The notes under the pieces are model-generated. The model ran no database searches and was not told the DNA's origin. It worked only from the letters and a program-made list of their open reading frames with translations. Both the position numbers and the translations under genes were made by a program. Source: Limnochordia bacterium (GTDB taxonomy: Bacteria; Bacillota; Limnochordia; DTU080; RSA5). Taken from it: a DNA stretch of 64,000 nucleotides. This document shows, in pieces, positions 22,072 through 44,587 of this stretch (position 1 is its first letter; each line of letters opens with the position of its first letter). The stretch is taken from contig JAWLDA010000007.1 in NCBI GenBank assembly GCA_041686855.1, forward strand, positions 144,977 through 208,976. The letters run 5' to 3'.

Positions 22072-23088
22072 CTACGCCTCCAAGCGGATCGGCGTGGATC
22101 CATTGGCTGCGGATTCTTCAGCCGCGAAGCAGGCTTGGTGGGTGTTGACGGCGTTGGCGAGGTTATCGTGAGATTCAACGTCGTTTAGGATACAGTCGAC
22201 GAAGTGTGAGACCATCTCGGGGAACGGGTGATGGGAGACAGCGCCGCTGTCAGGCAAGATCGTCTCAAACTCTCCGAAGCCATTCTGCCCGGGTAGCACC
22301 TTTGAATAAAAGCGATTGTTGCGGATGGCGCCTTCGTCACCGAACACCTCGACGTTAAACACATAAGGCATATAAAACTCGGTCGAGCCCGATATTTTCC
22401 CGGCTGCACCGCCCGCATACTTCACCGTTGCAATCGTGGTCGCCCGGTAATCGTCGGCAGATGCATCGTACGTCGGCGAGACGCCGCTCACTTGCACCAC
22501 TTTGTCGTCGCCCAAGATGTAGCGGGCCGCATCCATCGCGTGGCATCCCCCGTGGACGATCGCTCCCACGTCGAGCTTCTTCCAGTTGGGCCGTTTGAAG
22601 CGTTTGGGCGAGGCGTTGGTCGGTCCGTGCCAATAGTCGGCATGAACCACCCGCGGACGACCCACCCATCCTTTCTCAACCGCTTCTTTAATTGATAGGA
22701 TCATCGGATTCCAGCGCAAGACAAAGCTGATCACGCTCTTGACGCCGGACTCTTTCACCGCGGCGTCCATCGCCCGCAACTCGTCGTTGTCGGTCGCCAC
22801 TGGCTTTTCGATCAGGACATGCTTACCCGCCTGAGCCGCCTTGATGGTCTCCTCCGCATGGCGGTCCGGCGGCGTACAGATGGCGACGATGTCGACATCC
22901 GGATGCTCGAGCATCTGATCGTAGTCGTCGTAGATATCACAGGCGACGCCGAGCTCGTCGGCTTTGCGCTGAGCCCCTTCTTTTGTGCGGCTGCCGATAG
23001 CCACCACCCTCGTCGCCGGGTGTCCGGCAAACGCTTTGATGTGCTCCGTCGCCACATTCCCTGCTCCTTGAATCGCTACTCCAAACAC
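22072..23088 (-). CDS. Gfo/Idh/MocA family oxidoreductase
   Basis: FGVAIQGAGNVATEH Rossmann fold and the HVLIEKP motif. Last gene of the long minus-strand run. Confidence 0.8.
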   Translation of the reverse strand: MFGVAIQGAGNVATEHIKAFAGHPATRVVAIGSRTKEGAQRKADELGVACDIYDDYDQMLEHPDVDIVAICTPPDRHAEETIKAAQAGKHVLIEKPVATDNDELRAMDAAVKESGVKSVISFVLRWNPMILSIKEAVEKGWVGRPRVVHADYWHGPTNASPKRFKRPNWKKLDVGAIVHGGCHAMDAARYILGDDKVVQVSGVSPTYDASADDYRATTIATVKYAGGAAGKISGSTEFYMPYVFNVEVFGDEGAIRNNRFYSKVLPGQNGFGEFETILPDSGAVSHHPFPEMVSHFVDCILNDVESHDNLANAVNTHQACFAAEESAANGSTPIRLEA

Positions 23089-23182
23089 TCAAAAGTCACT
23101 CCCGTCAAAATGTTGTGGCCCACACTCATCTCAGCACATGCTTTTGACGCAAAACCCACCCGTCCTCCGCACACCGCTCTCC

Positions 23183-23977
23183 TCAACCACTGATCTCCAC
23201 CATCCGATCGCGAGCCTCCCGAAGAAACGGAAGCGTCTGTCCACCATCGACCGTCATCTCGATGCCGGTAACGAACGCCGCATACTCAGAGACTAAGAAG
23301 CAGACCACATGCGCGACGTCATCCGGCCTACCGAGGCGTCGCAGCGGTGTCAGCTGAGACATATCGTGATCGACTGAACGCGTCTGCGTTGGCCGTTTAA
23401 ACGGTGTCTCTATCGATCCGGGCGCGACGCAGTTCACCCGGATTCCGTCAGGACCGTAATCGAGCGCAAGCTGGCGAGTAAGCTGGACGATTGCGGCTTT
23501 TGCAGTTGGGTACACAACGTAGTTGCGGACCGAGCGGCGACCGACGACTGATCCCATGTTGACGATGTTGCCGCCTCCAAGGTTGCGCATGTGCGGAACG
23601 GCGTACTTGGCGCCCAGGAACTGCGCCCGGAGCAAGACTGCGAGGCTCCGATCCCAATCCTCGACTGCCAACTCCGTCGCGGACCCGGCCACCTCGAAGT
23701 GCGCGTTGTTTACCAGGACGTCGAGACGACCGTAGCGCTCCGCCGCTCCGTCGATCATCGTCTTGATTGCGGACTCGTCGCTCACATCGGTCGCCACGAA
23801 CGTGGCCTCGCCCCCCGCAGTGACGATCTCTGCGGCCACCCGACGACCGGACTCCTCCTGGAGGTCGGCGATGATCACCCGTGCACCGAGGGCTGCGAGC
23901 CGCTTCGCTGTCGCCTCACCGATGCCTTGAGCTGCTCCTGTGACGATGGCCGTGCGCCCGCTCAGATCGATCTTCAC
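23183..23977 (-). CDS. SDR family oxidoreductase (3-oxoacyl-ACP reductase-like)
   Basis: AIVTGAAQGIGEA, NNAH, YPTAKAA. GTG start at 23977 makes a 4-nt GTGA overlap with the upstream stop, indicating translational coupling. GGGGAGG upstream. Confidence 0.75.
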   Translation of the reverse strand: MKIDLSGRTAIVTGAAQGIGEATAKRLAALGARVIIADLQEESGRRVAAEIVTAGGEATFVATDVSDESAIKTMIDGAAERYGRLDVLVNNAHFEVAGSATELAVEDWDRSLAVLLRAQFLGAKYAVPHMRNLGGGNIVNMGSVVGRRSVRNYVVYPTAKAAIVQLTRQLALDYGPDGIRVNCVAPGSIETPFKRPTQTRSVDHDMSQLTPLRRLGRPDDVAHVVCFLVSEYAAFVTGIEMTVDGGQTLPFLREARDRMVEISG

Positions 23978-25155: not shown

Positions 25156-25156
25156 G

Positions 25157-26161
25157 TTACCTCGCCACCTCGATACGGCGACCTGTCTTGTGAGATTCGT
25201 CCGCCGCCAGGGCCACAGCGATCGTATGCCGACCGGCGTACCCGTCAGGGCCCGGCTTGGTGTTGGTGCGAATGCATTCAAAGAAGTGTTCAAACTCTCC
25301 TAAGCGTGGATTCGCCGGGGGTACCTCGATCGCCTCAATCTTAGAGTCGCCCCATGATTTGAGGAGAACGGGCTCTTGTCCCGAGCCCTTCTCGATCTTG
25401 GCCGACCCGGTGGTGCCTGCGACGCTCACTTCGTAGCTGGTAACCGGTGAGATCCGAGTGCAGACGAGCGTACCGACGGCGCCGGACTCAAACTCAAAGT
25501 TGAGGTTGGCCGCCTCTTCGACGTCGTTATCTGGGTCGTTACCGAATCCAAGGGTCGCCTGCACGCACTTGATGGGCCCGGCGAACCAACAGAGTTGATC
25601 AAGCTCATGGCTGTAGAGCGAGTACAGGCCCCCATACTTGCTTCGCTGCCTCTGCCAACCACCTGCGCCTCCCGGCGGTCCCGTGGATAGACGCACCGCA
25701 TGGGCGAACCGCAAGCTCCCCAATCGACCCTCGTCGATCAGCCGTTTCATCGTCGCAAACGAAGATTGAAACCGGCGAATGTATCCGATCATCAGGACGA
25801 CACCAGCCTTCTCCGTCGCTTCGATCATCGCGTCGCAGTCAGCGAGGCTGAGCGCCATGGGCTTCTCGCAAAAGACGTGTAGCCCGGCATTTGCCGCATC
25901 GACCGTCAGCTCCCTGTGGGTGAAGTTAGGGGTCACGATGACGACGGCATCCAAGCCTTCCTTGGAGAACATCTCTTTGTGGTCGGAGTACGCCCGCGGC
26001 TTGGCGTCAAGCTCCGCTGCCAGTCGATCTGCCGACTCTCTAAAGAAATCACACACACCGACCAGCTCAATTCCGGGCATTTGAGCAATCTCTTGCGCGT
26101 GACGACGCCCAAGACCCCCGCACCCGATGAGCCCAACTCGAAGTGATCCACTCTCTACCAT
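25157..26161 (-). CDS. Gfo/Idh/MocA family oxidoreductase
   Basis: MVESGSLRVGLIGCGGLG start at 26161 with AAGGAGAG 8 nt upstream. Its stop lies 1 nt from the next gene's start. Confidence 0.8.
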   Translation of the reverse strand: MVESGSLRVGLIGCGGLGRRHAQEIAQMPGIELVGVCDFFRESADRLAAELDAKPRAYSDHKEMFSKEGLDAVVIVTPNFTHRELTVDAANAGLHVFCEKPMALSLADCDAMIEATEKAGVVLMIGYIRRFQSSFATMKRLIDEGRLGSLRFAHAVRLSTGPPGGAGGWQRQRSKYGGLYSLYSHELDQLCWFAGPIKCVQATLGFGNDPDNDVEEAANLNFEFESGAVGTLVCTRISPVTSYEVSVAGTTGSAKIEKGSGQEPVLLKSWGDSKIEAIEVPPANPRLGEFEHFFECIRTNTKPGPDGYAGRHTIAVALAADESHKTGRRIEVAR

Positions 26162-26393
26162 CCGACTTCTCTCCTTGTTCACCGCTCGATGACAACGTCC
26201 CTCAGTTGCCACTGCACTGTTTGCCACTGCACTGTTTGCTACTGCTCTGATCAGCCCAACTGTTCAGCCCAACCTGCTCGCGGGTAGGTCCTCGCGTCGG
26301 GCAGCAGTCCCTGGCGAGTGAGACACCTCGGCAGGATCGGCCCGAGAGGGACGCACCGCTGGGTGCGTCCCCGTTTGATTTACAACGTCCGTG

Positions 26394-27641
26394 CTACTCC
26401 TGCTGCAGAACCTGGTTGGCCTGCTCTTCCGCCTGGCGCAACGCCGCATTCGGCGCTGTGCTACCGTCCATGGCCGCCCTAAAGAACGGGTTGGTCGCTT
26501 GGACCACGTCGGGATTTCTGAGGAACGGATAGACGCCTCCGGACTGAGCAAAGGTTAGGACGTTTCTCAAGTACGGCGCTTCTGCCACTTGGTCACCCCA
26601 GTGTCCGCCCTGATAGTAGTCCAAGCGTGGGGGCATCCGCCCCAGGATCTCGACGAGTTTCTCATTCGCCTCGACACTGGTGACAAATTGAATGTAGCGC
26701 CAAGCCTCTTTGGACTGCTCGCTCCCTTTGATCATCACGAGCATGTTGGACCACGTCATCGTGGCCCGCTCATCCGCCGAGGGACCTGCCGGCAGGTTGG
26801 TCATATCCAAATTGATGCCGGGGTTGGCCTCTTTCACCTCGCGAGCATTCCAGTTGCCACCGAGCCACATGGACGCTGTCCCTTGCCGGAAGTTCCCGCC
26901 TGCGACACCCATGTGGGTGAAGAGGTCGACGTACTCAGTGAGCGCTTCAATTCCCTGATCGGACGCAAACGTGTACGCCGTCTCGTCGGCATTGTACATG
27001 TCGCCGTTGTTGGCATGAAGGAAGGGGGCCCAAGCGTTGATCGACGCCCCGGCCGCCTGAATGCCGCCGCGCTCAATCGTGCCGTCGCCGCTTACTTTCG
27101 CCAGTTTGCGGGCGGCCTCTTTGAGGTCGTTCCAGGAATCAAAGGCGTATGGATCAACGCTTAATCCCGCTTCGGCGAAATGATCCGTGTTGTACAGGAC
27201 GGCGTTGGACGCCATCACGACCGAGATGCCGTAAGCGACATCGCCCTTGTGGTTGTAGCGCTGGGTTGCTGGAATGAAGCTCTCGATCTTTGTTCCCTCG
27301 GTGCGATCAATATACGGATTGAGCTCCTCAAGGATCCCCAAATCGTACAACTCTCGCCCCGTTACGATCGACGCCTGCGCCACGTCAGGCAGAACGCCTC
27401 CAGCTGCTCCGAGGATGAGTTTCTCCCGCACTTGGTAAATTCCGGGGACGTGCTGAACATCCAACTCAAGGTCAGGATTTTGCTCTTCGAAGGTGGTGAT
27501 CACCCACTCCCACCAGGGATCGTAGATCGCCGAGCCACCCCAGAAATCCCACACCTCCACGGTGGTCTTGGCGCTCGCAATCCCGGAGAAACCCATGAGC
27601 GCCACGCACACAAGAGCCACCAAGCCGAACTGCTTTGTCAT
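26394..27641 (-). CDS. ABC transporter extracellular solute-binding protein (family 1), signal peptide, no lipobox
   Basis: MTKQFGLVALVCVALMGFSGIASA signal peptide. Paralogue of 39559-40833. Confidence 0.8.
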   Translation of the reverse strand: MTKQFGLVALVCVALMGFSGIASAKTTVEVWDFWGGSAIYDPWWEWVITTFEEQNPDLELDVQHVPGIYQVREKLILGAAGGVLPDVAQASIVTGRELYDLGILEELNPYIDRTEGTKIESFIPATQRYNHKGDVAYGISVVMASNAVLYNTDHFAEAGLSVDPYAFDSWNDLKEAARKLAKVSGDGTIERGGIQAAGASINAWAPFLHANNGDMYNADETAYTFASDQGIEALTEYVDLFTHMGVAGGNFRQGTASMWLGGNWNAREVKEANPGINLDMTNLPAGPSADERATMTWSNMLVMIKGSEQSKEAWRYIQFVTSVEANEKLVEILGRMPPRLDYYQGGHWGDQVAEAPYLRNVLTFAQSGGVYPFLRNPDVVQATNPFFRAAMDGSTAPNAALRQAEEQANQVLQQE

Positions 27642-27769
27642 TGCCCTCAAGTGCCGAATACCCAACTTTACCAAACCTCCGATCTTTTCCTTGAATCCAT
27701 AGGACTCTCTCAGATCTGAAATCTCGGGTCACACGTTCGCTCTTCCGACAAATGATATCGTGAAAGCAT

Positions 27770-30160: not shown

Positions 30161-31453
30161 CTAATCCACCACTCCGGCGTCCCGCAGGTACTGGGTCAAC
30201 TGCCTATCTGCTTCCGCCAGAGAGGCCTCAGGAGTTGACTCGTTTGAAGCGACTCGGGCCCAAGCGGCGTTCAGTTCTCTCAGCACAATTCCCCAAAACG
30301 GCGGCCGGAAGTGCTGCTGATCGGCAATTTGAATGAAACTTGCCAGTCCCGGATCGGCCCGTTGAATCGCACCGGCCACGGTGTCTTTACGCGTCGGCAT
30401 ACTCCCGGAGAGTTCAAAGAAGCGCAACTGAACCTCAGCGCTTGCCAGGTAATTGATCAGGCGCTTCAACGGCTCAGTCATCTCCACGCCCTTTGGCACG
30501 ACATGTGACCAGCCGCCCATCCAACCCCCGGGCGATCCATTTGCAGAGTGCGGGTGGTGACCCACCTTGAAATTGAGATTCGGATTCACCTGGCGGTAGG
30601 CGTTGAGCGACGCGCTCGCATCTGCGACCATACCGAGGCGATTCTGCGCAAAGGCGCCCTGATAGTTTCTCGACGCTGCGATAAAGTCGCGCACAACGTC
30701 GACCGGGTAACGCGTGCTATACTCTTCCAACCATGTATACGCCGCCACGTTATTCGGATGGTCAAGGGAGGGGCGCCCCTCGGCGTCGTAGATTTGCCCC
30801 CCGTGGTTCCAGATATCCCCGGCTCGACCGAAGTTTCCTGCCCACGGAACGTAGCCCAGTTGGGTGAATTGCCCGTCTCCATCCGTTCGAGTCATACGCG
30901 CTGCAAACGTATCGAGTTCATCGAGCGTCTGCGGGCCAGCCTCCGCGTCAAGTCCCGACGCCGCCAGAACATCGACGTTCCACACGAGCCCTCGGGTCCC
31001 TGTCCCCCATGGAACGGCCCAGGTTTTGCCCAGGTGTACCGCTTCCCCGGCGGTGCCGGGCAGAAACTGATCCATCTGATTCTCTGGCTCCAGCACGTCG
31101 TCTAGAGGCTGGAACGAGTCGGCGGTAAGCACCCAATCGCCTACAAACGAGCGCTCAAAATGTACGACGTCGGGGGCGATATCGGAGGCGATCGCGAGGA
31201 GCAACTTCTCCTCCATCCCTCCACGTCCTCCGGAAGCGCCTGTGCTGAAGTGCTCAATCTCCACCGTGACGCCGGGATTTTGCTCTTCAAAGGTCTTGAG
31301 AATTTCTCGGATTGCCGTCCCCTCGGCCCGTGACTCGCCCATCCACGTCCAGTAGTGCAGCGTTGTGGCCGCGCTCGTGGACCCTATCGCGAGGAGCAGA
31401 ATCAACCCGCTGATCAGCGTAACCCAGAGCGCTCTTTGAGATCTCGATTTCAA
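30161..31453 (-). CDS. ABC transporter extracellular solute-binding protein (family 1), signal peptide
   Basis: MKSRSQRALWVTLISGLILLLAIGSTSAA, then the HYWTWMG... core. Confidence 0.8.
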   Translation of the reverse strand: MKSRSQRALWVTLISGLILLLAIGSTSAATTLHYWTWMGESRAEGTAIREILKTFEEQNPGVTVEIEHFSTGASGGRGGMEEKLLLAIASDIAPDVVHFERSFVGDWVLTADSFQPLDDVLEPENQMDQFLPGTAGEAVHLGKTWAVPWGTGTRGLVWNVDVLAASGLDAEAGPQTLDELDTFAARMTRTDGDGQFTQLGYVPWAGNFGRAGDIWNHGGQIYDAEGRPSLDHPNNVAAYTWLEEYSTRYPVDVVRDFIAASRNYQGAFAQNRLGMVADASASLNAYRQVNPNLNFKVGHHPHSANGSPGGWMGGWSHVVPKGVEMTEPLKRLINYLASAEVQLRFFELSGSMPTRKDTVAGAIQRADPGLASFIQIADQQHFRPPFWGIVLRELNAAWARVASNESTPEASLAEADRQLTQYLRDAGVVD

Positions 31454-31503
31454 TTTCTATTCGCTCCTTTCAAAAACTTCTCTGCTTATTGTTAAATCAC
31501 ACG

Positions 31504-32922: not shown

Positions 32923-32938
32923 ACTCAATCCACCTCCA

Positions 32939-34348: not shown

Positions 34349-34398
34349 GCGAACTCGCCTCTCCTTATTCCCTCAAAAATCTCGGATAGCGCAGGTGT

Positions 34399-35673
34399 TT
34401 ACGACTCCGGAAAGAGCTCCTCAAAACGAGCCAGCATGTGCTGCTGCACGTCATCCAGCGCTTGACTCGGCGTCTTGGCGCCTGTCACAACGGCGTTGGT
34501 GGCCGGGATCAGCTGTTGTACCAAGTACGCAACCCACAACGGTGTGCGCGCATTGATCTCGCCGAGCTGCTCTAGGAGCGGGTGATACTCTACAGGTAGG
34601 CGCTCTGCTAATCCTCCCCACGCCGCGGTGTTCGCCGGGAGTTGGGCCTGAAGCGCCGAGTTTGAAGCTACCGTAGCATCAAACCAAGCCTCCTGCGTCT
34701 CAGCGCTGCCGAGGTGTCTGAGGAAGCGAAGGGCCGCATCCTTGTTGGGCGCGTTGTGAGGAACGACAAAGCCACCGCCGCCTCCCCATGTCCCGTTACG
34801 CCCGCCGGAAGCGTGCGGCACACGACCTGTGGTAAAGGCGACACCTTGGTCAAGAAAGCGTGGAATCGTCACGTTCGCATGGGCAACCATGCCGAGTGAG
34901 CCATTCGCGAAGCTCTCCTGCCAGCGGGCGACAGGCCAAAGCGTGCCGTCGAAGCGCTTGCCCCATTCCGCCATCCATTCAAACGCGGCGAGGTTCTTTG
35001 GATCGTTGGCCGTCGGCCGTGTGCCGCTTTCGTCGACCAACTCCCCTCCAAACGCCCACATCCAACCGGCTGCGTACCAGTTTCCTTCCCAGGGAACAAA
35101 GCCGACTCGCGCGTAACTCCCGTCGTTGTTGGTGCGTGTCATCCGCATCGACCACTCTTCGAGCTCTTCGAGCGTCGCCGGGTCTTCGCTGGGATCGAGT
35201 CCGCTTTGACCAAACGCGTCGACGTTCTTAAACAATCCCCGGACCACCGTGCGGTACGGCGACGCCCACAACTTGCCGTCGTACGTCGCCTCCCCTGTAT
35301 CGCCCGGATTAAATGTGTATCCCTCGAGTGTGCGCGTGACGTCCGTCAAGAGCCCTCGGGCTGCGAACTCTTTCACCTCACCACCCGAGATCCACGCCAC
35401 CGATGGCGCTACATCGGTGGCAATGGCGATCTGCAACTTCTCCATATACTCCGTCGTGCTTCCGGAGATGACGTTGATCTCTACGTCCGTACCCGGATTC
35501 GCCTGACGAAATGTATCGAGGCCCGCGTTGATCCCGATCTCATCCGTGTGCTGAAATACCCAGACGCTCAACGGCTCGGCCAACGCCGAAAGCGAGAGCA
35601 AAGTGAGCAACACGAGCGTGACAAAGCCGGCACAAATCCATCGAGCACTGCGGTTTTGATTCACTTGGGTCAC
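34399..35673 (-). CDS. ABC transporter extracellular solute-binding protein (family 1), signal peptide
   Basis: Signal peptide ...LLTLLSLSALAEP, then an SBP core. 8-bp gap to the upstream sulfatase. Confidence 0.8.
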   Translation of the reverse strand: MTQVNQNRSARWICAGFVTLVLLTLLSLSALAEPLSVWVFQHTDEIGINAGLDTFRQANPGTDVEINVISGSTTEYMEKLQIAIATDVAPSVAWISGGEVKEFAARGLLTDVTRTLEGYTFNPGDTGEATYDGKLWASPYRTVVRGLFKNVDAFGQSGLDPSEDPATLEELEEWSMRMTRTNNDGSYARVGFVPWEGNWYAAGWMWAFGGELVDESGTRPTANDPKNLAAFEWMAEWGKRFDGTLWPVARWQESFANGSLGMVAHANVTIPRFLDQGVAFTTGRVPHASGGRNGTWGGGGGFVVPHNAPNKDAALRFLRHLGSAETQEAWFDATVASNSALQAQLPANTAAWGGLAERLPVEYHPLLEQLGEINARTPLWVAYLVQQLIPATNAVVTGAKTPSQALDDVQQHMLARFEELFPES

Positions 35674-35681
35674 CCTTTCTA

Positions 35682-37157
35682 CTAAGAAACACCTTGGAAC
35701 TCGTTGACACCGGCAGGGAATTGCCAGCGGTCAGACTCTTTGGGACGAACCGTGCGTCGCCACTCAAGCGTAAACTCCCGCTCGAATCTGCGGCGCTCGA
35801 CGACGCGGGCGATCCGCTCCGGATCCCAGCCTTCATTCACCTGCGCGAGGAGCTCAGCTCGAATAGCCGCCGCGGACTCTGACTCACCGAGGTCAGTCAT
35901 CTCTTGGGGGTCGTCCTCCAGATTAAAGAGTTGGGGGTGTTCGTAGCCGTGGTACGCGTTTAGCTTCCAGGGTCCGCTCCGAATCATCCGGCTCACAGGC
36001 ATCCCCGCCTCCGGAGGATACATCTCCGCAAACGCCGGCCGCGGCTCCAATGCGCTCTCATGGCTTCCTAACGCTAACGCCGGCGCCAGGCTCCGACCCC
36101 GCGCGAACGGCAGTGTGCGAGCGCCGGCTAGGTCGATACACGTGGGTCCAACATCAAGGAGGCTCGAGACTCCTTGGCGGACGACGCCCGCCTCAAACCG
36201 CCCCGGCCATGACCAGATCATAGGCACACCTACCGAAGCCTCATAGAGGCTCTCCTTCCACCAGATGCCGTGTTCGCCAGCCATCTCCCCATGATCAGAG
36301 ATGTAGGCGATCGCGGTGTTGTCTTTCTGCCCTATCTGCTGGAGAGCGCCCACCACCTCGCCGATGCGCTCATCAAGGTAGGTGACCATCCCGTAGTAAG
36401 CGGCCAGCGCGGCCCGTGCCTGATCGGAGGTGATTTTGTCGACCCCACGAGCCTTACGCCAGTGGCGCATCGCCGGGTGGAGGCGATCGGAGTACCCATC
36501 AGGGATCGACGGCAGCGACACCTTATCCATGTACTCGTCAAAGAGCGGCTTGGGGCAAACGTACGGACAGTGTGGCAACAGGTAGCCGACCACGAGGCAG
36601 AACGGTCGCTCCTCACCGCTTTGAGCCCGTTCGTGCAGAAATTGAACAGCCCGCTGTGTCACGGCGTCATCGTACGCGGTGTAGGTGCAGTATCCTGCTC
36701 CCACAGCCTCCATCGTCAGGTAGTTCTGGCCCACGGTCGTTTTGGGAATGACGCCCTCAAACATCCCCTCAGCCGGCATACCGGTCATCGCCCCGCTCAC
36801 GTCGCCGACGAGTCGACGTTCGAATCCGTGGTGCTGATCGTCACCGATAAAGTGCATGCGCCCGCAGAGCACCGTCTCGTAGCCGGCGAGCGAAAGGGCA
36901 TGGGCGAACGTTGGGACGTTGGAAGAGAGTGGGCACGGATTGGTCCAAACCTCGATGTCGGACGGGTATTGCCCCGTAAGGAAGCTCATGCGCGAGGGAG
37001 CACAGAGCGGCGACCCGCAGTAGGTGTTGGCAAATCGCACCCCATCGTGTGCGAGCGCGTCAATGTTTGGCGTACGCACAGTCGGATCGCCGGCGCACCC
37101 CATGATGTGCGGGCTGTGCTGATCGGAGAGGATGATGAGCAGGTTCGGTCTAGTCAT
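35682..37157 (-). CDS. Sulfatase (Cys-type), cytoplasmic
   Basis: MTRPNLLIILSDQHS...PLCAPSRMSFLTG. GGAGGG 10 nt upstream. Paralogue of 7093-8649. Confidence 0.8.
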   Translation of the reverse strand: MTRPNLLIILSDQHSPHIMGCAGDPTVRTPNIDALAHDGVRFANTYCGSPLCAPSRMSFLTGQYPSDIEVWTNPCPLSSNVPTFAHALSLAGYETVLCGRMHFIGDDQHHGFERRLVGDVSGAMTGMPAEGMFEGVIPKTTVGQNYLTMEAVGAGYCTYTAYDDAVTQRAVQFLHERAQSGEERPFCLVVGYLLPHCPYVCPKPLFDEYMDKVSLPSIPDGYSDRLHPAMRHWRKARGVDKITSDQARAALAAYYGMVTYLDERIGEVVGALQQIGQKDNTAIAYISDHGEMAGEHGIWWKESLYEASVGVPMIWSWPGRFEAGVVRQGVSSLLDVGPTCIDLAGARTLPFARGRSLAPALALGSHESALEPRPAFAEMYPPEAGMPVSRMIRSGPWKLNAYHGYEHPQLFNLEDDPQEMTDLGESESAAAIRAELLAQVNEGWDPERIARVVERRRFEREFTLEWRRTVRPKESDRWQFPAGVNEFQGVS

Positions 37158-37266
37158 AGTGAATCTCCCTCCAAGTACCTTTCACACCCACTGCGGCGTG
37201 CACGGTCTCTCGCACCGTCTCCATGCGCGCGCCGACCGAATGTGTAGACTAAACTCGAGATGGACG

Positions 37267-38214
37267 TCAGAGCCGCAGTCGATCGATCCCCTGATCCCAG
37301 TACCGCTCGAGGAGTCCGCCGAGGTACTCACGTGCTTCAGCATCCCAAGCAGAGCCGGCCGGCGAACGTACCGTTGCGTGGTCAATCCATCCCCGGCGGT
37401 GCAACACCTCTTTGATCACCATGCGGCCACCCGAGTGGAGCTCGAAGTCGAGGAGCTCAAGGAAGCGGGCGTGTACCTCCGCGGCTCTCTGGAGATCGCC
37501 GGCCTGGTGTCTGCGCCAGACTTCTGCGAAGAGCTCCGGATAACACGACGACGGCATGGTCCCGATGGCGCCTGAGGTGAGCTCCCACGGAAAGAGGATA
37601 CCGCCCAACCCACCAAAGACGCCGACTCGTTCAAACCCGATCCGTTCACCGATGACACGAATCTTGCGCGATGCGTTGGGAATCTCCACCTTAAGGTAGC
37701 GCACACCAGGGGCCGCCTCCAGGAGCTCTGCCAATTGATCCACCCTCAACTCGATCCCGGCCAGAGGATGGTCCTGTAGAATGATCGGCAGGCGTGTCGC
37801 CTCGCTTAGACGGCCAAAGTACTCGGTGATGGCAGCAGGATCGGCCCGCCACTGGCCAAAGAACGGAGGCATGCACATCACCGCTGCCGCCCCCGCCGCT
37901 TCGGCTGCCCGGGCGTGACCTTCCGCCTGTTTGACGCTATAAGCGTGAAAGGTGACAACAATGGGCACCTGAGCGCCCACTTCGTCGAGCACCGTACCTA
38001 CAATCGCCTTGCGCTCGTCATCGTCGAGGGTGTACCCTTCGCTCGCATTGGCGAGGAGGACCAATCCGTTCGACCCATACTCGACAAGGCGGCGGACCAA
38101 CCGCATGAGACTGGGCACATCGACGTTCTCGTCGGTGTCGAACGGGGTTGCAACAATCGGGAAAAGTCCGGCCAACCTGGTCACGTACACTTCACCATCC
38201 AGTCTGGGATCCAA
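37267..38214 (-). CDS. Dihydrodipicolinate synthase/N-acetylneuraminate lyase family aldolase (likely a 2-keto-3-deoxy-sugar acid aldolase)
   Basis: DHDPS-family fold motifs (FPIVATPF, active-site region ...LKVEIPN...). The annotated start codon is a TTG, so the true start is uncertain. Confidence 0.7.
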   Translation of the reverse strand: MDPRLDGEVYVTRLAGLFPIVATPFDTDENVDVPSLMRLVRRLVEYGSNGLVLLANASEGYTLDDDERKAIVGTVLDEVGAQVPIVVTFHAYSVKQAEGHARAAEAAGAAAVMCMPPFFGQWRADPAAITEYFGRLSEATRLPIILQDHPLAGIELRVDQLAELLEAAPGVRYLKVEIPNASRKIRVIGERIGFERVGVFGGLGGILFPWELTSGAIGTMPSSCYPELFAEVWRRHQAGDLQRAAEVHARFLELLDFELHSGGRMVIKEVLHRRGWIDHATVRSPAGSAWDAEAREYLGGLLERYWDQGIDRLRL

Positions 38215-38246
38215 GAGATCATCGAACCTGCATCGTTCTTCTAGGG

Positions 38247-39506
38247 TTAGGAATGTCCCCGGTGTTGCCCGTACACGTCGTCAGACACCTCTGGCACCGG
38301 GAACGAACTAGGATGCGTAGGGTAACCGGGCGCCCGGTACTTTGGATCTAGCGACCAGTGATCACGTCGCCATGCCTCACGAGCCGCGACGTCTCTGAGG
38401 TCAGGCACGTCGAAGGGCATATTCCGCTCCATAATGGAACGGAAGCCGAGCAGGCCCGGCAGGGACATGTCGAGAGCGCGGTATACGTCGATTCTGTTTT
38501 CGAGTCGACCGAGGACAGTCTGCAAGAACGCGTGGGAGACGTAAAAGTCCGCTCCACCATGTCCCGTCGCTCGCTTCGCCACGTCGAGATACGAGTCATC
38601 CACCCAGTCGCCATGCACGACGGATAGATCAGGGGCGTACTCGCGTCGCCCTTCTTCAGCGCCGTCGATGTAGAGGCTTACGAGATTCCGGTCCCACCGA
38701 CTGGACTCTATGCACCCTTTGGTACCGTACAAGGCCAGCCAGTGACTGGAAGGCTCTCGCTTTAGACCGCCGTGACTGATCAAGATCTTGACGGTCGCGC
38801 CGTTGGACATTTGGCACATCAAGAGTCCCGAGTCGCCGTGGAGCCGTCCGTAACGATGGCCCACACGATTGGGCGTCTCCATTCCGACCACCCGGACCAC
38901 CCGCGTGTCGGTGACATCAATCAGGGGCCCTAGAGGGTGAGTGCAGTAGAAGGTGCTCCCCCGCCAGTTTCGCCAATGGCTCCGGTCCCCGCGAGTGAGA
39001 CGGGCCCAGATCTTCTCCGTATCGTGAACGTACTCGCCTTCGCCGTGCTGGAACTCGCCCAGGTCCCCGGCGCGATACCGCCGGCGCATCTCGCCGGCAT
39101 GCGGAAAGAAGCATAAGTTCTCCCCCATCATGTAAACGAGGCCTGTACGCTCCACTGTCTCCACGAGGTCGACCGCCTCGCCCAACGTTTGGCACGCCGG
39201 CACCTCACTGAGGACGTGCCGACCCGCATCGAGAGCCCGGACGGCGAGCAGGGAGTGCTCGTGGGCGGCGTTCGCCAGGACGACTGCGTCGAGGTCGTGC
39301 TCAAGCAACTTCCCAAACTCTTGGTAGTAGGCGATGCGATCGCCGTACTCCGCCTTGATGGGCCGCAAAGCCTCTTCACTAAGGTCACATACAGCCACCA
39401 ACTCGGCGTCGGGGTGTTGGTCCATAGTCGATATAAAGACTCGACCACGGCGTACACCCACGACACCAACGCGCACCTTGTGGCGCACTTGTCCCAAACT
39501 CATCAC
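38247..39506 (-). CDS. Gfo/Idh/MocA family oxidoreductase; C-terminal HGGADF motif
   Basis: VRVGVVGVRRG Rossmann fold. Close paralogue of 23974-25155. Confidence 0.8.
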   Translation of the reverse strand: MMSLGQVRHKVRVGVVGVRRGRVFISTMDQHPDAELVAVCDLSEEALRPIKAEYGDRIAYYQEFGKLLEHDLDAVVLANAAHEHSLLAVRALDAGRHVLSEVPACQTLGEAVDLVETVERTGLVYMMGENLCFFPHAGEMRRRYRAGDLGEFQHGEGEYVHDTEKIWARLTRGDRSHWRNWRGSTFYCTHPLGPLIDVTDTRVVRVVGMETPNRVGHRYGRLHGDSGLLMCQMSNGATVKILISHGGLKREPSSHWLALYGTKGCIESSRWDRNLVSLYIDGAEEGRREYAPDLSVVHGDWVDDSYLDVAKRATGHGGADFYVSHAFLQTVLGRLENRIDVYRALDMSLPGLLGFRSIMERNMPFDVPDLRDVAAREAWRRDHWSLDPKYRAPGYPTHPSSFPVPEVSDDVYGQHRGHS

Positions 39507-39558
39507 CTCATGCCTCTCTTCACGTCGCGTTTGACTCTCCGCCGCGATTGGCGCTCTG

Positions 39559-40833
39559 CTATTGACCAGCTAGAATTTGGTTCGCCTCAAAGGCCGCGCG
39601 TTCGATCGCTTCCTGGGCCGGGATCTCATTGTTACCGGCCGCCCCAAAGAGCGGATTGATCACCCGGTTCAACTCGTTGAGCTCGACAAAGGGATAGGCC
39701 CCACCGGAGTTGACGAGCGAGGGCGAGTTGCGCAGGTAAGGACGCTCCTCGACTGTGCGAGCCCAGTGTCCGGTCGCAAAGTAGTCCAACCGCGAAGGCA
39801 GCCGATCCAGGAGTTCGACCATCTTCTCGCTCGAACCGAGTCCGGTCATCACCCGGATCATCTCCCAAGCAGCCTCTTGCTCCTCCACACCCCGAGGAAT
39901 CGCCATCATGTTGGCCCAGGTCATCGTAGCCCTTCCCGCCCCGGACGGGCCGGGTGGGAGCGTAGTCATGTCGAGCTCGAGGCCGGGCGAGGCGTCGAGG
40001 ACCAGTTTCGCGTTCCAATCGCCAGCCAACCACATCGCTGCACTGCCTTGCGTGAAGTTGCCGCCAGCCACGTCTAAATTGACAAAGATGTCGATCCCCG
40101 CCTGCATTGCCTCGACTCCCTGGGGTGTGCCAAAGGCGGCGCCCCGCAAATCGTCGTTGTAGATCGCCGAATCATTGGCGTACAGGAACGGCCCGAGATT
40201 GGCAATGGCGTTGATGCCCCCCGGCTGGATTCCACCGCGCGTCACTTGGCCGTCGGCATTCTGTCGCACGAGCTTGCGGAGGGCATCCATCCACATTTGC
40301 CAGTCCTCGAGGGCATAGGGATCCGTACTCAAACCGCTCTCCTCAAAGTGCTGGGTGTTGTAAAGGAGCGCGTTTGAGGCTGTGAATATGGGGACGCCAA
40401 AGATGGCGCCCATTTTTTGCGAGTACTTATGCGTCACCGGGATAAAGTTGGCGGGATCGGCATCGGGAGCGAATCGAACATAAGGGTGCAAATCCTCCAA
40501 GACACCTCGTTCGTAAAGCTCCAGTGCCCAGGCAACGGAGGTTTGAGTGACGTGTGGTAGGACGCCGCCGACCGCGCCGACAATCAGCCGCTCGCGCAAT
40601 GCGCCAATACCGGGAAGCCGGGTGTACTCAACCGTCACGTCCGGGTTGTCCCGCTCGTACGTCTCCTTCATCCAATCAAGCCACGCATCGTACGCATCGC
40701 CTTCGGGCCAAGCGTGCCACACTTCCAGCGTCGTCTGTGCCGCGGCCCCACCCGAGACGAGTAGGAGTGCCATTAACAATGCAACGAGAGTCAAACCACC
40801 GTTCACTTTTGACCTGGACAGCATGCGAGCCAT
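39559..40833 (-). CDS. ABC transporter extracellular solute-binding protein (family 1), signal peptide
   Basis: Signal peptide LTLVALLMALLLVSGGAAAQ. Paralogue of 26394-27641. Confidence 0.8.
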   Translation of the reverse strand: MARMLSRSKVNGGLTLVALLMALLLVSGGAAAQTTLEVWHAWPEGDAYDAWLDWMKETYERDNPDVTVEYTRLPGIGALRERLIVGAVGGVLPHVTQTSVAWALELYERGVLEDLHPYVRFAPDADPANFIPVTHKYSQKMGAIFGVPIFTASNALLYNTQHFEESGLSTDPYALEDWQMWMDALRKLVRQNADGQVTRGGIQPGGINAIANLGPFLYANDSAIYNDDLRGAAFGTPQGVEAMQAGIDIFVNLDVAGGNFTQGSAAMWLAGDWNAKLVLDASPGLELDMTTLPPGPSGAGRATMTWANMMAIPRGVEEQEAAWEMIRVMTGLGSSEKMVELLDRLPSRLDYFATGHWARTVEERPYLRNSPSLVNSGGAYPFVELNELNRVINPLFGAAGNNEIPAQEAIERAAFEANQILAGQ

Positions 40834-40869
40834 TCCGTGTCAACCCCCAGTCTTTAGCGAATCACACCT

Positions 40870-40904
40870 ACACGGCAATCGGATATCGGATCCGATTGCC
40901 GTGT
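40870..40904. promoter_or_regulatory. Perfect 15-bp inverted repeat with a 5-nt spacer (ACACGGCAATCGGAT-atcgg-ATCCGATTGCCGTGT). Candidate operator.
   Basis: Directly visible. It lies 37-71 bp upstream of the solute-binding protein gene start and downstream of the GntR gene. No U-tract follows, so it is not an intrinsic terminator. Confidence 0.5.
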
Positions 40905-40949
40905 GCAACATTCGATTCGTCAGAGCGGCTCCACATCCTGCGCATTTTT

Positions 40950-41612
40950 CTAAAACATTGAGTAAATTCTGCGACGGCCGTTCTCTATATGCCGATTCAC
41001 CGCATCAAGCGCCGCCGACACTTTTCCTGTACGGAGCGCCGCTACGTACGCTTGATGGCTCTGGAGATCGGAACCAGGCGGTGGATGGGGACTGCGCATG
41101 CGTCCGTAACTTTGGATGAGTTGAATCCTCGGTTCCAAGTAGCTCCAAAACTCCATGAGGAGCCGGTGCTCACCCACCTCGATCAAGCGGCGATGAAACC
41201 GAGCATCATACTCAACGACACGATGAAACTCGCGGGCTTGAGCCGCCTCCTCGATGCGGTGGGCCAGCGCGTCCAACTGATCCAGATCCTCTTGAGCGAG
41301 CCGGCTCAACGCCCTCTCTACCGCGTCTCGCTCAAGCATCGCCCGCATCTCGAGCACCTCGTCGACAAGCCTCGGCGTGATCTCGACTACCTGGCTGCCG
41401 CGAAATGGTTGGGCCTCGACGAGCCCTGTCTTTGCTAATGAAGTCAATGCATCGCGGACAGGCGTCTTACTCACACCCAGGAGATCTCCGATCTTAGTCT
41501 CGACGAGCCGCGCCCCAGGAGCGAGATCGCCTTGAATGATCATCTGGCGCAGGCGCCGTTCCACCCAGCGGCTCACCCCCATTGGGCTTTGGCTCTTAGG
41601 CGTGTTGGGCAT
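40950..41612 (-). CDS. GntR family transcriptional regulator (FadR/FCD subfamily)
   Basis: wHTH (DLLGVSKTPVRDALTSLAKTGLV) and an all-helical FCD-like C-terminal domain. Confidence 0.8.
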   Translation of the reverse strand: MPNTPKSQSPMGVSRWVERRLRQMIIQGDLAPGARLVETKIGDLLGVSKTPVRDALTSLAKTGLVEAQPFRGSQVVEITPRLVDEVLEMRAMLERDAVERALSRLAQEDLDQLDALAHRIEEAAQAREFHRVVEYDARFHRRLIEVGEHRLLMEFWSYLEPRIQLIQSYGRMRSPHPPPGSDLQSHQAYVAALRTGKVSAALDAVNRHIENGRRRIYSMF

Positions 41613-43245
41613 GGTCCACTTCGTTCATCACCATGGCGCCCGCGTGCCGAGCCGTCTTGGGATCGCCGGCAGCGTGCTGCACACCTGTCTCGGGGTCGAT
41701 GTAGATCGCCACCGGGTGAGCGATTGGGCCCTTGGCGACCTTGACGCGATGCCCCCGGCGTGCCAGCTCCGCCCGCGCGTCTTCGTCAATCCCCTCATTC
41801 ACATTGAGGGAGCCCACTTCTTTAAATGCTTTGGTACGGTCAGGTTGCGGATCAAAGGATCCCTGATGGTGCAGAGTCGCGAAGCGAGCCGATGTGACGG
41901 AGTCGTCAGGCAGGATACCAAACTCCACGAAGTTGAGGATGAGCTGCAAGGTGACTTGATCCTGCAAGTCTTGCCCTGCGACGCTGATCGCCAGAATCGG
42001 GCGCCCCTCTTTGAGCACCAACGTTGGCGTGAGAGTAATGCGGGGACGCTTCCCGGGTTGGATCCGGTTGGGGTGGCCCGGAGTCGTGTTGAGACTGAGC
42101 AGACGATTGCTGTACGTGACGCCGGTCTCGCCTGCATCCAGCTCCTTTAGATAAACGTTGGCGCTGGGCGTCGCCGAGACGACATTCCCCCACCGGTCGG
42201 CGACGACGCATGTCGTCGTGCCGCCGACACCGGGGCGAAAGACACCTCCCTCCTTGAGGGGCCGCATGCGGAATGGATCGCCTGGGCGGGCCTCCAGCGA
42301 CGCCCTATCCATATCAATCAGCTTGCGCCGCATCTCGGTGTACGGATCCGAAAGGAGGCGCCCCAGGGGGACACCGACGAACTCGGGGTCCCCGTAATAC
42401 TCATCGCGATCCGCCATGGCCAGCTTGATCGCCTCTGTCACCACGTGGACGTAATCGGGTGAGAGCCGGCCCATCGACTTGAGGTCGAAACTCTCGAGGA
42501 GCCGCAGCGCCTGCAATAGGTAGGGACCTTGCGTCCACGGCCCGCACTTGCAGACGGTGTAACCCTTGTAGTTGACGCTGACGGCATCTTCCACCGTCGT
42601 CACGTGAGCGGCGAGGTCTTCCCGACGCAAAAACCCACCTTTGCGAATATAAAACGCTTCGAGCTCCTCAGCGATGTCGTTGCGCTCGGGATGCCGACCG
42701 TAAAAGCGGTCGCTAACGGCCTGAAGCCGCTCCTCCCGACTCCCGGTCGCCAGTTCCTCTTCCTCGACCAACTTCCGCAAGGTGATCGCCAGTTTAACCT
42801 GCCACTCCTCCTTGCCTGCATCCAGGAGAGCCAGCGACGGGGCGATCACCTCCCGAAACGTCATGGTTCCGTATCGCCGCAAGGTTGTAAGGCACAGGTC
42901 GACCACGGACGGGACCGGCGCCATCTTCATATCCCCGTCGCCGGGAATGCCGTTTTGCATGTACCATTCGATCGCGTCCGGCGAGAGTGGCGCGCCCCCC
43001 TGTCCGCTCAGCGCCTTCACTTCTCGTGTCTTTGCGTCAAAGATCAGCAGCGGCACCTCCCCGCCAATGGAGCACTGGCCGTGGTCGGTGATGTTGAGTG
43101 CGAAGATCGTCGCCACTGCGGCATCAGCCGCGTTACCGCCCTGCTCGAGGATGTGCACGCCTGCCTCGACCGATTTGGGGGGGCCGGCCGCTACCACACC
43201 GAAGCTTCCGGATGCCTTCCAACTTAGCTGCTCTGCCTGATCCAT
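41596..43245 (-). CDS. Gamma-glutamyltransferase family protein (Ntn-hydrolase), no signal peptide
   Basis: Autoprocessing and nucleophile region GVGGTTTCVVADRWGNVVSATPS plus the conserved GGT small-subunit region. Confidence 0.8.
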   Translation of the reverse strand: MDQAEQLSWKASGSFGVVAAGPPKSVEAGVHILEQGGNAADAAVATIFALNITDHGQCSIGGEVPLLIFDAKTREVKALSGQGGAPLSPDAIEWYMQNGIPGDGDMKMAPVPSVVDLCLTTLRRYGTMTFREVIAPSLALLDAGKEEWQVKLAITLRKLVEEEELATGSREERLQAVSDRFYGRHPERNDIAEELEAFYIRKGGFLRREDLAAHVTTVEDAVSVNYKGYTVCKCGPWTQGPYLLQALRLLESFDLKSMGRLSPDYVHVVTEAIKLAMADRDEYYGDPEFVGVPLGRLLSDPYTEMRRKLIDMDRASLEARPGDPFRMRPLKEGGVFRPGVGGTTTCVVADRWGNVVSATPSANVYLKELDAGETGVTYSNRLLSLNTTPGHPNRIQPGKRPRITLTPTLVLKEGRPILAISVAGQDLQDQVTLQLILNFVEFGILPDDSVTSARFATLHHQGSFDPQPDRTKAFKEVGSLNVNEGIDEDARAELARRGHRVKVAKGPIAHPVAIYIDPETGVQHAAGDPKTARHAGAMVMNEVDHAQHA

Positions 43246-44550: not shown

Positions 44551-44587
44551 CTTCGTGTAGCTCCGTTCGTCCGAGCCGGCCGGGCCG

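Follow-up and report, generated by a model that had tools for sequence, protein, structure and literature searches.

A putative modular island for sulfated glycosides in a Limnochordia bacterium, combining GH109-type proteins with signal-less sulfatases and orphan binding proteins

We analysed a stretch of 64,000 nt (64 kb, ~60% G+C; hereafter the window) of a Limnochordia bacterium, positions 144,977 to 208,976 of contig JAWLDA010000007.1 (GenBank assembly GCA_041686855.1), following up an annotation made from the sequence alone (the original prediction) that had drawn attention to a long run of minus-strand genes for the catabolism of sulfated substrates. With a probability of roughly 0.55, this run and a second gene group (~7.1-17.9 and 22.1-43.2 kb) constitute a modular catabolic island for sulfated glycosides or short sulfated oligosaccharides, which would be captured, imported, desulfated, cleaved by GH109-type enzymes and further oxidised as sugars. 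The reading is carried by three proteins related to the NAD-dependent glycosidases of family GH109, five sulfatases that appear to be cytoplasmic and five solute-binding proteins (SBPs) with signal peptides.

GH109-type paralogues

Seven Gfo/Idh/MocA genes were found in the window when a hidden Markov model built from them was run against all open reading frames (ORFs) of at least 60 amino acids (aa), and not nine as had been counted at first. As judged by homology, three of them are GH109-type proteins; they are named here, as other genes of the window, by the first coordinate of the gene (10223, 23974 and 38247). They are exactly the three for which a shared HGG[AT]D motif had been announced, and no further protein has it; the motif lies ~100 residues upstream of the C-terminus and is therefore not C-terminal in the strict sense. 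It aligns with the GGHGGMD catalytic loop of NagA and AmGH109A, and the alignments of the three paralogues with GH109 enzymes span ~360-400 residues. The two top PDB matches of the 38247 protein, both full length, are NagA (2ixa, E 4.7e-16) and AmGH109A (6t2b, E 1.5e-14). The latter is also the best match of the 23974 protein (E 2.2e-18, full length), which is 53% identical to the 38247 protein, and of the 10223 protein (E 2.3e-24), the most GH109-like of the three. All three carry the N-terminal NAD-binding Rossmann domain PF01408 (E 6e-16 to 2e-19), and they are the only Gfo/Idh/MocA proteins of the window matched by the GH109_C domain of Pfam. With the local model PF21252.2 (Glyco_hydro_109_C, gathering score 27), the 10223 protein reaches 30.2 bits, the 38247 protein 16.2 and the 23974 protein 13.6; precomputed matches to PF21252.4 at E <=1e-5 exist for the very sequence of the 38247 protein and for every homologue listed.

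The catalytic residues of AmGH109A (PDB 6T2B) are Tyr226, His259 and His404 (PMC10755693, summarising Teze et al. 2020). Counted along the alignments with a chain offset of 25, they correspond to Y159, H190 and H316 of the 38247 protein, in which the equivalents of E149, R213 and Y225 of NagA are aligned as well. Across 29 sequences (the three paralogues and 26 database homologues), no variation was seen at E129, Y159, R179, H190, H316, G317 and D320, and Y187 is shared by at least 90%; the equivalents of NagA E149 and R213 are among the invariant positions. In a neighbour-joining tree the three paralogues join NagA and AmGH109A, with the four other Gfo/Idh/MocA proteins placed outside this group; these four match GH109 over their Rossmann domains alone (90-179 columns) and have neither the HGG loop nor the catalytic set. 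Thus the suspected kinship with GH109 holds for the three paralogues, which group with the family and keep glycosidase-type residues, unlike the four ordinary dehydrogenases. They may belong instead to one of the sister NAD+-dependent CAZy families GH177 and GH179, whose founders are Tannerella SiaHI and the archaeal protein QFQ13829.1.

These results narrow the statement that the island contains no classical glycoside hydrolase (GH). No such GH and no polysaccharide lyase (PL) domain of Pfam was detected in any major ORF, and to this extent the statement stands; it does not cover the three GH109-like ORFs, nor the GH30-like fold in the C-terminal half of a fusion protein described below. Since GH109 is itself a CAZy family, "no GH" holds only for classical, non-redox hydrolases, and a dbCAN/CAZy scan would probably assign all three paralogues to it.

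With NagA of Elizabethkingia meningoseptica and AmGH109A of Akkermansia muciniphila, the window proteins share the Rossmann and GH109-type C-terminal domains, a full-length alignment and the catalytic Tyr, His and loop His. They are shorter, however (383-419 against 444-456 aa), carry no secretion signal, have a nucleotide-binding loop that is one residue shorter (GV-RRG), and are tied to sulfatases rather than to mucin or blood-group loci. The SqgA sulfoquinovosidases of family GH188 (PMC10755693) are likewise cytoplasmic, NAD+-dependent glycosidases of the Gfo/Idh/MocA fold; they use the same oxidation-elimination-hydration-reduction chemistry, which opens the catabolism of an anionic sulfur-containing sugar, and two of their catalytic His superpose on His259 and His404 of AmGH109A. 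In contrast to the substrates considered here, that of SqgA is a sulfonate with a C-S bond and requires no sulfatase, and the window is without sulfoglycolysis genes. The structures 8tdf and 8tdh, which we take to be SqgA, gave a weak match to the GH109-like query, over the N-terminal part only (E ~3e-5).

Spread and neighbourhoods of the clade

The clade to which the paralogues belong consists of proteins of ~410-430 aa, signal peptides having been examined in the three window members. It is large: a word-indexed search returned 1,276 proteins at E <=1e-10, and an exhaustive search 670 clusters at 50% identity (E <=1e-30). In species-representative genomes, 589 stretches were confirmed, mostly in metagenome-assembled genomes (MAGs) of gut and rumen Clostridia, and the clade also occurs in Chloroflexota, Armatimonadota, Verrucomicrobiota, Kiritimatiellia and Fibrobacterota. 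The best genome match to a GH109-like protein of the window has 57% identity and comes from a Bacillota MAG, so that the genomes scanned included no close relative of the host. For a flavoprotein of housekeeping type, the labelled relatives (55-59% identity) are likewise MAGs, of Bacillota, Firmicutes or Symbiobacteriia.

Neighbourhoods were compared by BLAST against the window proteins in 83 related loci (numbered with the prefix L) from 80 genomes, together with a Pfam census of 123 immediate neighbours. Parts of the arrangement recur. In L003, SBP, GH109-like, DHDPS-type and sulfatase genes are 77-87% identical to those of the window. In L086, the GH109-like gene has a PHP hydrolase gene directly upstream, 40% identical to the one of the window, and is accompanied by genes for an uncharacterised protein, an orphan SBP and two sulfatases. 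In L001, its neighbours encode an orphan SBP, a protein of the BNR type and an esterase of the SASA type. L084 has DHDPS-type, TauE, GH109-like and GntR/FCD genes in this order, followed by those for an ABC transporter and GH88.

In L084, a related metagenome contig, the GH109-like gene is thus placed between a gene of the TauE/SafE sulfite-exporter family and a GntR gene, with the DHDPS-type gene upstream of it and a GH88 unsaturated glucuronyl hydrolase nearby (3550-4317 and 14874-15662). This arrangement is a further hint of a tie between the clade and anionic or sulfated sugars.

Sulfatases, binding proteins and transport

All five sulfatases are of the Cys type, with C-x-P-x-R at residues 52-81 and PF00884 matches of E 1e-34 to 2e-50. 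Their N-termini are not hydrophobic: even in the longest possible ORFs, the Kyte-Doolittle maximum over 12 residues does not exceed 1.24 in any of the five, and the Sulfatase domain begins at residues 2-33. Two of them show an apparent N-terminal extension that overlaps the upstream gene, so their true start most likely lies further downstream. The five family-1 SBPs (SBP_bac_1/SBP_bac_8), for their part, have an h-region of at least 2.65 on the Kyte-Doolittle scale, then a cleavage site of the AxA type, and they lack a lipobox Cys. The absence of a signal peptide from five out of five sulfatases and its presence in five out of five SBPs are both as had been predicted, and this split bears out the view of external binding proteins and internal sulfatases. 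A signal peptide is also missing from the three GH109-like proteins, the metallophosphoesterase fusion and the PHP hydrolase. That sulfated oligomers are imported and then desulfated in the cytoplasm, as the original prediction had it, is plausible from the gene content and from this split.

As to substrates, the 35682 sulfatase has choline sulfatase 6fny as best PDB match (E 3.8e-71) and scores 358.5 with TIGR03417, under the equivalog cut-off of 433.45; the 7093 sulfatase scores 315.5 with the same model. For the 32939 sulfatase, the best PDB matches are the uncharacterised or promiscuous enzymes 4upi and 4upl, then the N-acetylglucosamine (GlcNAc)-6-sulfatase 5g2v, and its subfamily is not assignable from these PDB neighbours. 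In an anaerobe, Cys-type sulfatases would be matured more likely by a cytoplasmic anSME than by the O2-dependent formylglycine-generating enzyme (FGE) (see also PMC8966484). Neither has a Pfam domain in any major ORF of the window, in agreement with the earlier remark that the FGE is not in the window.

The SBPs at 39559-40833 and 26394-27674 are 46% identical to each other. An orphan SBP gene beside a GH109-like gene was also seen in L001 and L086. A metagenome scan with this SBP pair returned four loci, all distant, and in distant relatives of the SBPs in L089, L091 and L092 two ORFs of ~300 codons lie directly downstream (the second cut by the contig end in L092). Two ORFs of this size after an SBP gene are the usual permease pair. 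Because the window has five SBPs without permease or ATPase, the orphan pattern recurs in L001 and L086, and the distant relatives have permease-like pairs, our data suggest that one remote translocator serves several binding proteins.

A perfect 10-bp GC hairpin (26348-26371) is present 20 nt past the stop codon of the SBP gene at 26394; no T-tract follows on the coding strand.

Organisation of the island

The minus-strand run at 22072-43245 is real: it is an unbroken series of 16 consecutive ORFs, whose Pfam assignments are given in transcription order in Table 1 (genes 1-16). A second, related minus-strand operon (13894-7093) carries the genes of a ThuA-like protein, a DUF3604-like/PHP-type hydrolase, a Gfo/Idh/MocA protein with a GH109_C match and two sulfatases, and is flanked by a divergent ROK regulator gene, a further Gfo/Idh/MocA gene and the fifth SBP gene.

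Table 1. Genes of the two gene groups, in window coordinates; enzyme names are predictions.
Gene	Feature	Coordinates	Strand	Remarks
1	Gamma-glutamyltranspeptidase homologue, 549 aa	41596..43245	-	Pfam G_glu_transpept, E 3.8e-84
2	GntR/FCD transcription regulator	40950..41612	-	Pfam GntR + FCD; a 37%-identical GntR gene adjoins the GH109-like gene in L084
3	SBP, signal peptide, orphan	39559..40833	-	Pfam SBP_bac_1 + SBP_bac_8; syntenic copy in L003 and L088
4	GH109-like NAD-dependent glycosidase homologue, Gfo/Idh/MocA, 418/419 aa, no signal peptide	38247..39506	-	GHGGAD loop at 38547-38564
5	DHDPS/NAL-family protein, L-2-keto-3-deoxyarabonate dehydratase type	37267..38214	-	Pfam DHDPS; same gene follows the GH109-like gene in L003
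6	Cys-type S1 sulfatase, choline-sulfatase-like, cytoplasmic	35682..37157	-	Pfam Sulfatase; CAPSR at residue 52
7	SBP, signal peptide, orphan	34399..35673	-	8 nt separate its start from the stop of gene 6
8	Cys-type S1 sulfatase, cytoplasmic	32939..34348	-	Pfam Sulfatase + SGSH_C; CVPSR motif
9	Cys-type S1 sulfatase, cytoplasmic	31504..32922	-	Likely start ATG 32922, behind GGAGGTGGA ribosome-binding site
10	SBP, signal peptide, orphan	30161..31453	-	Pfam
11	Two-domain fusion protein, 707 aa	27770..29893	-	N-terminal GpdQ/Rv0805-like metallophosphoesterase; C-terminal barrel
12	SBP, signal peptide, orphan	26394..27674	-	Followed by 10-bp GC hairpin
13	Ordinary Gfo/Idh/MocA dehydrogenase	25157..26227	-	Pfam N- and C-terminal domains; likely start ATG 26161; no HGG loop
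14	GH109-like NAD-dependent glycosidase homologue, Gfo/Idh/MocA, 393 aa	23974..25155	-	SHGGAD loop at 24205-24222; ATG 25155 one nt past the upstream stop
15	SDR, glucose-1-dehydrogenase-like subfamily	23183..23977	-	Pfam adh_short; GTG start overlaps the upstream stop by 4 nt
16	Ordinary Gfo/Idh/MocA dehydrogenase, last gene of the run	22072..23088	-	Pfam
	Fifth SBP, signal peptide, orphan	16665..17954	+	Pfam
	Ordinary Gfo/Idh/MocA dehydrogenase, 431 aa	15136..16431	-	Pfam
	ROK-family regulator, N-terminal helix-turn-helix	13924..15198	+	Transcribed divergently from the ThuA operon
	ThuA-like protein, first gene of the second operon	13190..13894	-	Pfam ThuA, E 1.1e-22
	PHP-type metal hydrolase, DUF3604-like (CehA/McbA-like), cytoplasmic	11473..13041	-	Pfam DUF3604, 35 bits over 34 residues
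	GH109-like NAD-dependent glycosidase homologue, Gfo/Idh/MocA, 383 aa	10223..11374	-	SHGGTD loop at 10430-10447
	Cys-type S1 sulfatase, divergent, cytoplasmic	8576..10114	-	Pfam; CxPxR
	Cys-type S1 sulfatase, choline-sulfatase-like, cytoplasmic	7093..8649	-	43% identical to the 35682 protein

The tight spacing with 4-nt overlaps, and the translational coupling along the operon deduced from it, had been overstated. With plausible start codons the run has one 4-nt overlap only (the GTGA at the SDR start 23977), besides the 1-nt gap before the GH109-like start at 25155 and a possible overlap of the first two genes; the remaining intergenic gaps measure 8-267 nt (267 before the fusion gene, 232 before the dehydrogenase gene at 25157, 109-116 elsewhere). 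Because gaps of 95-267 nt separate its units and a single 4-nt overlap is present, transcription is likely modular, and we describe the run as a set of several small units rather than as one operon with translational coupling throughout. The units of the island are each headed or followed by their own binding-protein gene. A scan for promoters and terminators returned fewer sites in the window than in shuffled sequence and was hence uninformative.

The gamma-glutamyltranspeptidase homologue, which opens the run, scores 234.6 in NCBIfam against a cut-off of 357.85. Its N-terminus is not hydrophobic, so that a signal peptide is lacking, and its gene possibly overlaps the GntR gene by 17 nt; it may not be a functional member of the island. 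Divergent from the run, a plus-strand unit (43813-48085) encodes a metallo-beta-lactamase-fold protein, a class-V aminotransferase, the seventh Gfo/Idh/MocA protein and an M20 peptidase, and may be a further module of the island. Just upstream of the start of the dehydrogenase gene at 25157, a 15-nt direct repeat (x2.9) and a 13-nt repeat (x2.1) occupy 26206-26273 and may be an operator.

Ordinary dehydrogenases and a possible sugar-acid route

The four ordinary Gfo/Idh/MocA proteins score far under every NCBIfam equivalog cut-off; with the models for glycoside 3-dehydrogenase, disaccharide 3-dehydrogenase and levoglucosan dehydrogenase they reach 30-94 bits, where the cut-offs are 650-750. 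The SDR at 23183-23977 reaches 253.5 with NF005559, above the cut-off of 215.

The four dehydrogenases, together with the ThuA-like gene, could be taken for a two-enzyme 3-keto-glycoside route, in which a ThuB-like protein or glycoside 3-dehydrogenase works with a separate lyase or hydratase, as in the ThuAB, levoglucosan, C-glycoside and Bacteroides 3-keto pathways. The window does offer a ThuA-family protein, Gfo/Idh/MocA proteins and family-1 SBPs, as does the ThuAB system of rhizobia. Nevertheless, it has neither an adjacent ThuB-like gene nor a ThuEFGK transporter: the operon partners of the ThuA-like gene are the PHP hydrolase gene, a GH109-like gene and two sulfatase genes, with the ThuA-like gene co-oriented with the GH109-like gene and not with a ThuB-like one, and the nearest ordinary Gfo/Idh/MocA gene (15136-16431) is parted from it by the ROK gene on the opposite strand. 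Moreover, no TIM-barrel lyase of the sugar-phosphate-isomerase-like or xylose-isomerase-like type was found by Pfam in the window. Given this and the low scores of the four dehydrogenases, we consider such a route highly improbable. The earlier proposal of an oxidation-assisted glycoside cleavage is therefore kept in its GH109-type form, for which homology and catalytic residues speak, and dropped in its ThuAB and 3-keto-glycoside-lyase forms.

The gene following the 38247 paralogue had been read as a DHDPS-family aldolase. Its protein (37267) is nearest to a dehydratase, not to an aldolase: its best PDB matches are 3fkk and 7c0c, both L-2-keto-3-deoxyarabonate (L-KDA) dehydratase (E 5e-40), the next match standing at 4.5e-26 and NanA at ~1e-16. 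The Schiff-base Lys is aligned (stretch yfKiE / ylKvE), a LAN-SE motif is shared with L-KDA dehydratase, and the protein remains under the cut-off of all NCBIfam DapA, NanA and KdgD models. This closeness points to a Weimberg-type oxidative sugar-acid route, of which the protein would be a part. In such routes, Gfo/Idh/MocA and SDR enzymes serve as sugar dehydrogenases; the non-phosphorylative L-arabinose pathway of Azospirillum brasilense, reportedly described by Watanabe et al. in 2006, is said to start with a Gfo/Idh/MocA sugar 1-dehydrogenase. The window resembles that pathway in its L-KDA-dehydratase-type protein (3fkk) and differs from it by having no lactonase, sugar-acid dehydratase or 2-oxoglutarate-semialdehyde dehydrogenase gene. 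A catabolism of the sialic-acid type, which the GntR/FCD regulator, the DHDPS-family gene and the SBP, with the BNR and SASA neighbours in L001, might recall, was set aside, since the product of the DHDPS-family gene resembles L-KDA dehydratase far more closely than NanA.

The PHP hydrolase scores 65 with NF038032, under the cut-off of 80, and a PDB sequence search with it gave no match; a literature search on DUF3604 brought no relevant paper either.

Metallophosphoesterase-barrel fusion

In the 707-aa fusion protein, the Pfam Metallophos domain covers residues 33-257 only. An AlphaFold2 model built on a 37-sequence alignment (pLDDT 84.8, pTM 0.90) has an N-terminal fold matching the phosphodiesterases Rv0805 (3ib7) and GpdQ (3d03) and purple acid phosphatases. 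The C-terminal 382 residues (~326-707, nt 27770-28918), which have no Pfam match at E <=1 and no significant PDB sequence or profile match, were modelled alone as a (beta/alpha)8 barrel with a beta-sandwich (pLDDT 81.4). Top Foldseek matches of this model are the GH30 enzymes 3gtn (XynC; E 2.5e-7, TM 0.52), 1nof and 4qaw, with E up to 7e-7 and TM 0.49-0.55; lower ones include GH13, GH51 and GH79, and also DHDPS/NAL-type barrels and aldo-keto reductases. On the C-terminal face of the barrel, N47, D48, E115, K156, R160, R162, D208, D248, D250 and R251 are invariant (numbering of the C-terminal domain). Asp, Arg and Lys predominate among the invariant residues; only one of these is a Glu, on strand 4, and strand 7 has an Asp (strands assigned by eye), so that the Glu/Glu pair of clan GH-A on strands 4 and 7 is not seen in the domain. 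Such a composition would be expected for an anionic ligand more than for the active site of a clan GH-A enzyme. Homologues of 650-730 aa number at least 580 and come from Planctomycetota, Chloroflexota (Litorilinea) and other groups.

One may ask whether this barrel is a hidden glycosidase of the classical type, that is, the real depolymerase of the island, for example for phosphodiester-linked or sulfated glycans, the GH109-like proteins being accessory. The model is confident (pLDDT 81-85), GH30 xylanases come first among its structural matches and other GH families next, the barrel is flanked, as in GH30, by a beta-sandwich of N- and C-terminal strands, its invariant residues gather on the C-terminal face, and the domain is kept throughout the homologues. 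Yet the TM-scores are only ~0.5 at 9-10% identity, neither Pfam nor PDB sequences match, no clear signature of clan GH-A (strand 4 ending in Asn-Glu and strand 7 in Glu) can be made out, the abundance of invariant Arg and Lys suggests an anionic ligand rather than a neutral glycan, and barrels other than GHs are among the structural matches. We thus regard a glycosidase role of this kind as very unlikely. The domain appears, on the model, to have a GH30-like fold, which is a caveat to the absence of a glycoside hydrolase and not its refutation.

The ~700-aa unannotated proteins encoded beside GH109-like genes in L001, L084 and L086 are not homologues of the fusion.

Proposed route and its weighing

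In the route that we favour, the family-1 SBPs, periplasmic or extracytoplasmic, would capture the substrates and hand them to an ABC translocator encoded elsewhere. The cytoplasmic S1 sulfatases, whose fold and motif are observed, would strip sulfate esters once activated by a maturation enzyme. The three GH109-type enzymes might then cleave the glycosidic bonds by the NAD+-dependent sequence of C3 oxidation, E1cB elimination, hydration and reduction. Released sugars would be oxidised by the ordinary Gfo/Idh/MocA and SDR dehydrogenases, the L-KDA-dehydratase-type enzyme could take a 2-keto-3-deoxy sugar acid towards 2-oxoglutarate semialdehyde, and the GntR/FCD and ROK regulators might control the modules.

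A bolder version, which we hold to be unlikely, would make this a fully cytoplasmic depolymerisation of sulfated oligosaccharides without any classical GH: the ~415-aa GH109-type clade would make all glycosidic cuts, with cytoplasmic S1 sulfatases, the PHP-type hydrolase and the barrel fusion as partners, the fusion dealing with phospho- or sulfo-ester-linked glycans, and several orphan SBPs would feed one shared translocator.

Several observations weigh against the favoured route. Identity to characterised GH109 enzymes is just 23-26% over ~400 columns, and two of the three paralogues (38247 and 23974) stay under the gathering score of the local GH109_C model. No member of the ~415-aa clade has a demonstrated activity, and of 31 GH109/177/179 proteins of Fervidibacter sacchari expressed in E. 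coli none was active (PMC11535203); because of this, the assignment of the three paralogues as glycosidases is one that we infer from homology and residues. The sulfatases point to no particular glycan, since their PDB neighbours indicate a choline-sulfatase-like affinity for only two of the five and no subfamily, and choline sulfatase, which the 35682 and 7093 proteins resemble, is an enzyme of a non-glycan substrate. Among the ORFs of the window, Pfam revealed no ABC permease (BPD_transp_1) or ATPase and, in the major ones, no FGE or anSME; as a lactonase and a sugar-acid dehydratase are also absent, the pathway as drawn is incomplete. Finally, the neighbourhoods of the clade are heterogeneous, with sulfatases nearby in 6 of the 83 loci. 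The 83 loci and 123 neighbours contain no conserved partner that would reveal the substrate, the commonest Pfam families (ABC permease, FGGY kinase, creatininase, URO-D and PHP) being found in 4-5 of the 123. The sulfatase link of the clade is thus real but lineage-specific.

Much of this would also fit a mosaic of scavenging modules for small sulfated compounds (choline-O-sulfate, sulfated monosaccharides, aryl or alkyl sulfates), used mainly for sulfur or osmolytes, in which the GH109-like proteins would be plain sugar or polyol dehydrogenases that cleave no glycosidic bond. Each unit has its own SBP and lies 95-267 nt from the next, sub-modules recur elsewhere but the whole island does not, the neighbours of the clade vary, two sulfatases are nearest to choline sulfatase, and the F. 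sacchari homologues showed no glycosidase activity (PMC11535203). What such a mosaic does not account for is the acid/base His of the GGHGG loop and the Tyr/His pair, which have no known role in simple dehydrogenases and are nevertheless invariant here and absent from the four ordinary paralogues. Moreover, both choline-sulfatase-like proteins are under the equivalog cut-off, and the SBPs are of family 1 (the carbohydrate type) and not of the ChoX/ProX type. We therefore judge scavenging to be somewhat unlikely, and retain the import and intracellular cleavage of sulfated glycosides as the preferred reading.

Comparison with known loci and significance

Sulfatase-rich glycan loci, cytoplasmic desulfation after import and NAD+-dependent glycosidases (GH4, GH109, GH188) are each already known. 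In Bifidobacterium breve, Egan et al. (2016, Appl Environ Microbiol 82:6611; a reference listed in PMC8966484) are said to have described the ats2 cluster, by which GlcNAc-6-sulfate is imported by a transporter and desulfated by an intracellular sulfatase. The window shares this Gram-positive-type logic of import followed by intracellular desulfation; ats2, however, has its own anSME and transporter and no GH109-like enzyme, whereas the window has five sulfatases and five SBPs and neither maturase nor membrane components. With the polysaccharide utilisation loci of Bacteroidota for sulfated glycans (mucin, glycosaminoglycans, carrageenan, fucoidan) it has in common that S1 sulfatase genes stand together with those of glycan-cleaving enzymes, of binding proteins and of a local regulator; the SusC/D transport, secreted or periplasmic sulfatases and many classical GH and PL families of those loci are all absent from the window. 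A literature search returned no described locus with cytoplasmic GH109-type enzymes as only recognisable glycosidases, several signal-less S1 sulfatases and orphan SBPs.

GH109-annotated genes are among the most abundant and yet least understood calls of carbohydrate-active enzymes (CAZymes) in gut, soil and marine metagenomes. The activity is known from a few secreted N-acetylgalactosaminidases, and recent attempts on other members failed (PMC11535203). The present locus gives a concrete, testable context to a large cytoplasmic GH109-like clade with intact catalytic residues, among signal-less sulfatases and SBPs, and its metallophosphoesterase-barrel fusion and PHP hydrolase are further candidate enzymes. 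If the clade cleaves sulfated or desulfated glycosides, turnover of the Bacillota or Chloroflexota type would need no sets of secreted GHs and sulfatases as in Bacteroidota, and CAZyme surveys that count classical GHs alone would underestimate the capacity for sulfated glycans.

Other features of the window

Rfam returned no match in the window. Directly downstream of the last gene of the run, 1.26 kb (20813-22072) hold no convincing gene, have no Rfam match and are dense in tandem repeats: 16 nt x4.8 (20885-20959), a 241-nt unit x2.3 at 94% identity (21029-21586), 20 nt x2.3 (21779-21825) and 13 nt x2.4 (21994-22024). An ORF of 128 aa in this segment (20962-21348) has no Pfam match. A 15-nt tandem repeat (x5.3) lies at 19917-20014, between divergent MFS and SDR genes; since it reads as five copies of LDATS in the longest SDR ORF, the real start of that SDR is probably a downstream Met. 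At 6359-6910, on the minus strand, a 21-nt tandem repeat (x10) encodes the MDGLEQR heptads of a 183-aa coiled-coil protein, for which Pfam gives generic coiled-coil matches only.

A single ORF of 4,950 aa fills 48106-62958 on the minus strand. Its product has a signal peptide, and the N-terminus resembles the two-partner secretion domain of exoproteins of the filamentous-haemagglutinin type (NSFERFDV ... LNPHGVIVG). As this mode of secretion implies an outer membrane, the resemblance suggests that the host possesses one, which would fit a deep, diderm lineage of Bacillota such as Limnochordia. Pfam returned no match for the protein; Ala, Gly, Val, Ser and Thr abound in its composition, and internal repeats are nearly absent.

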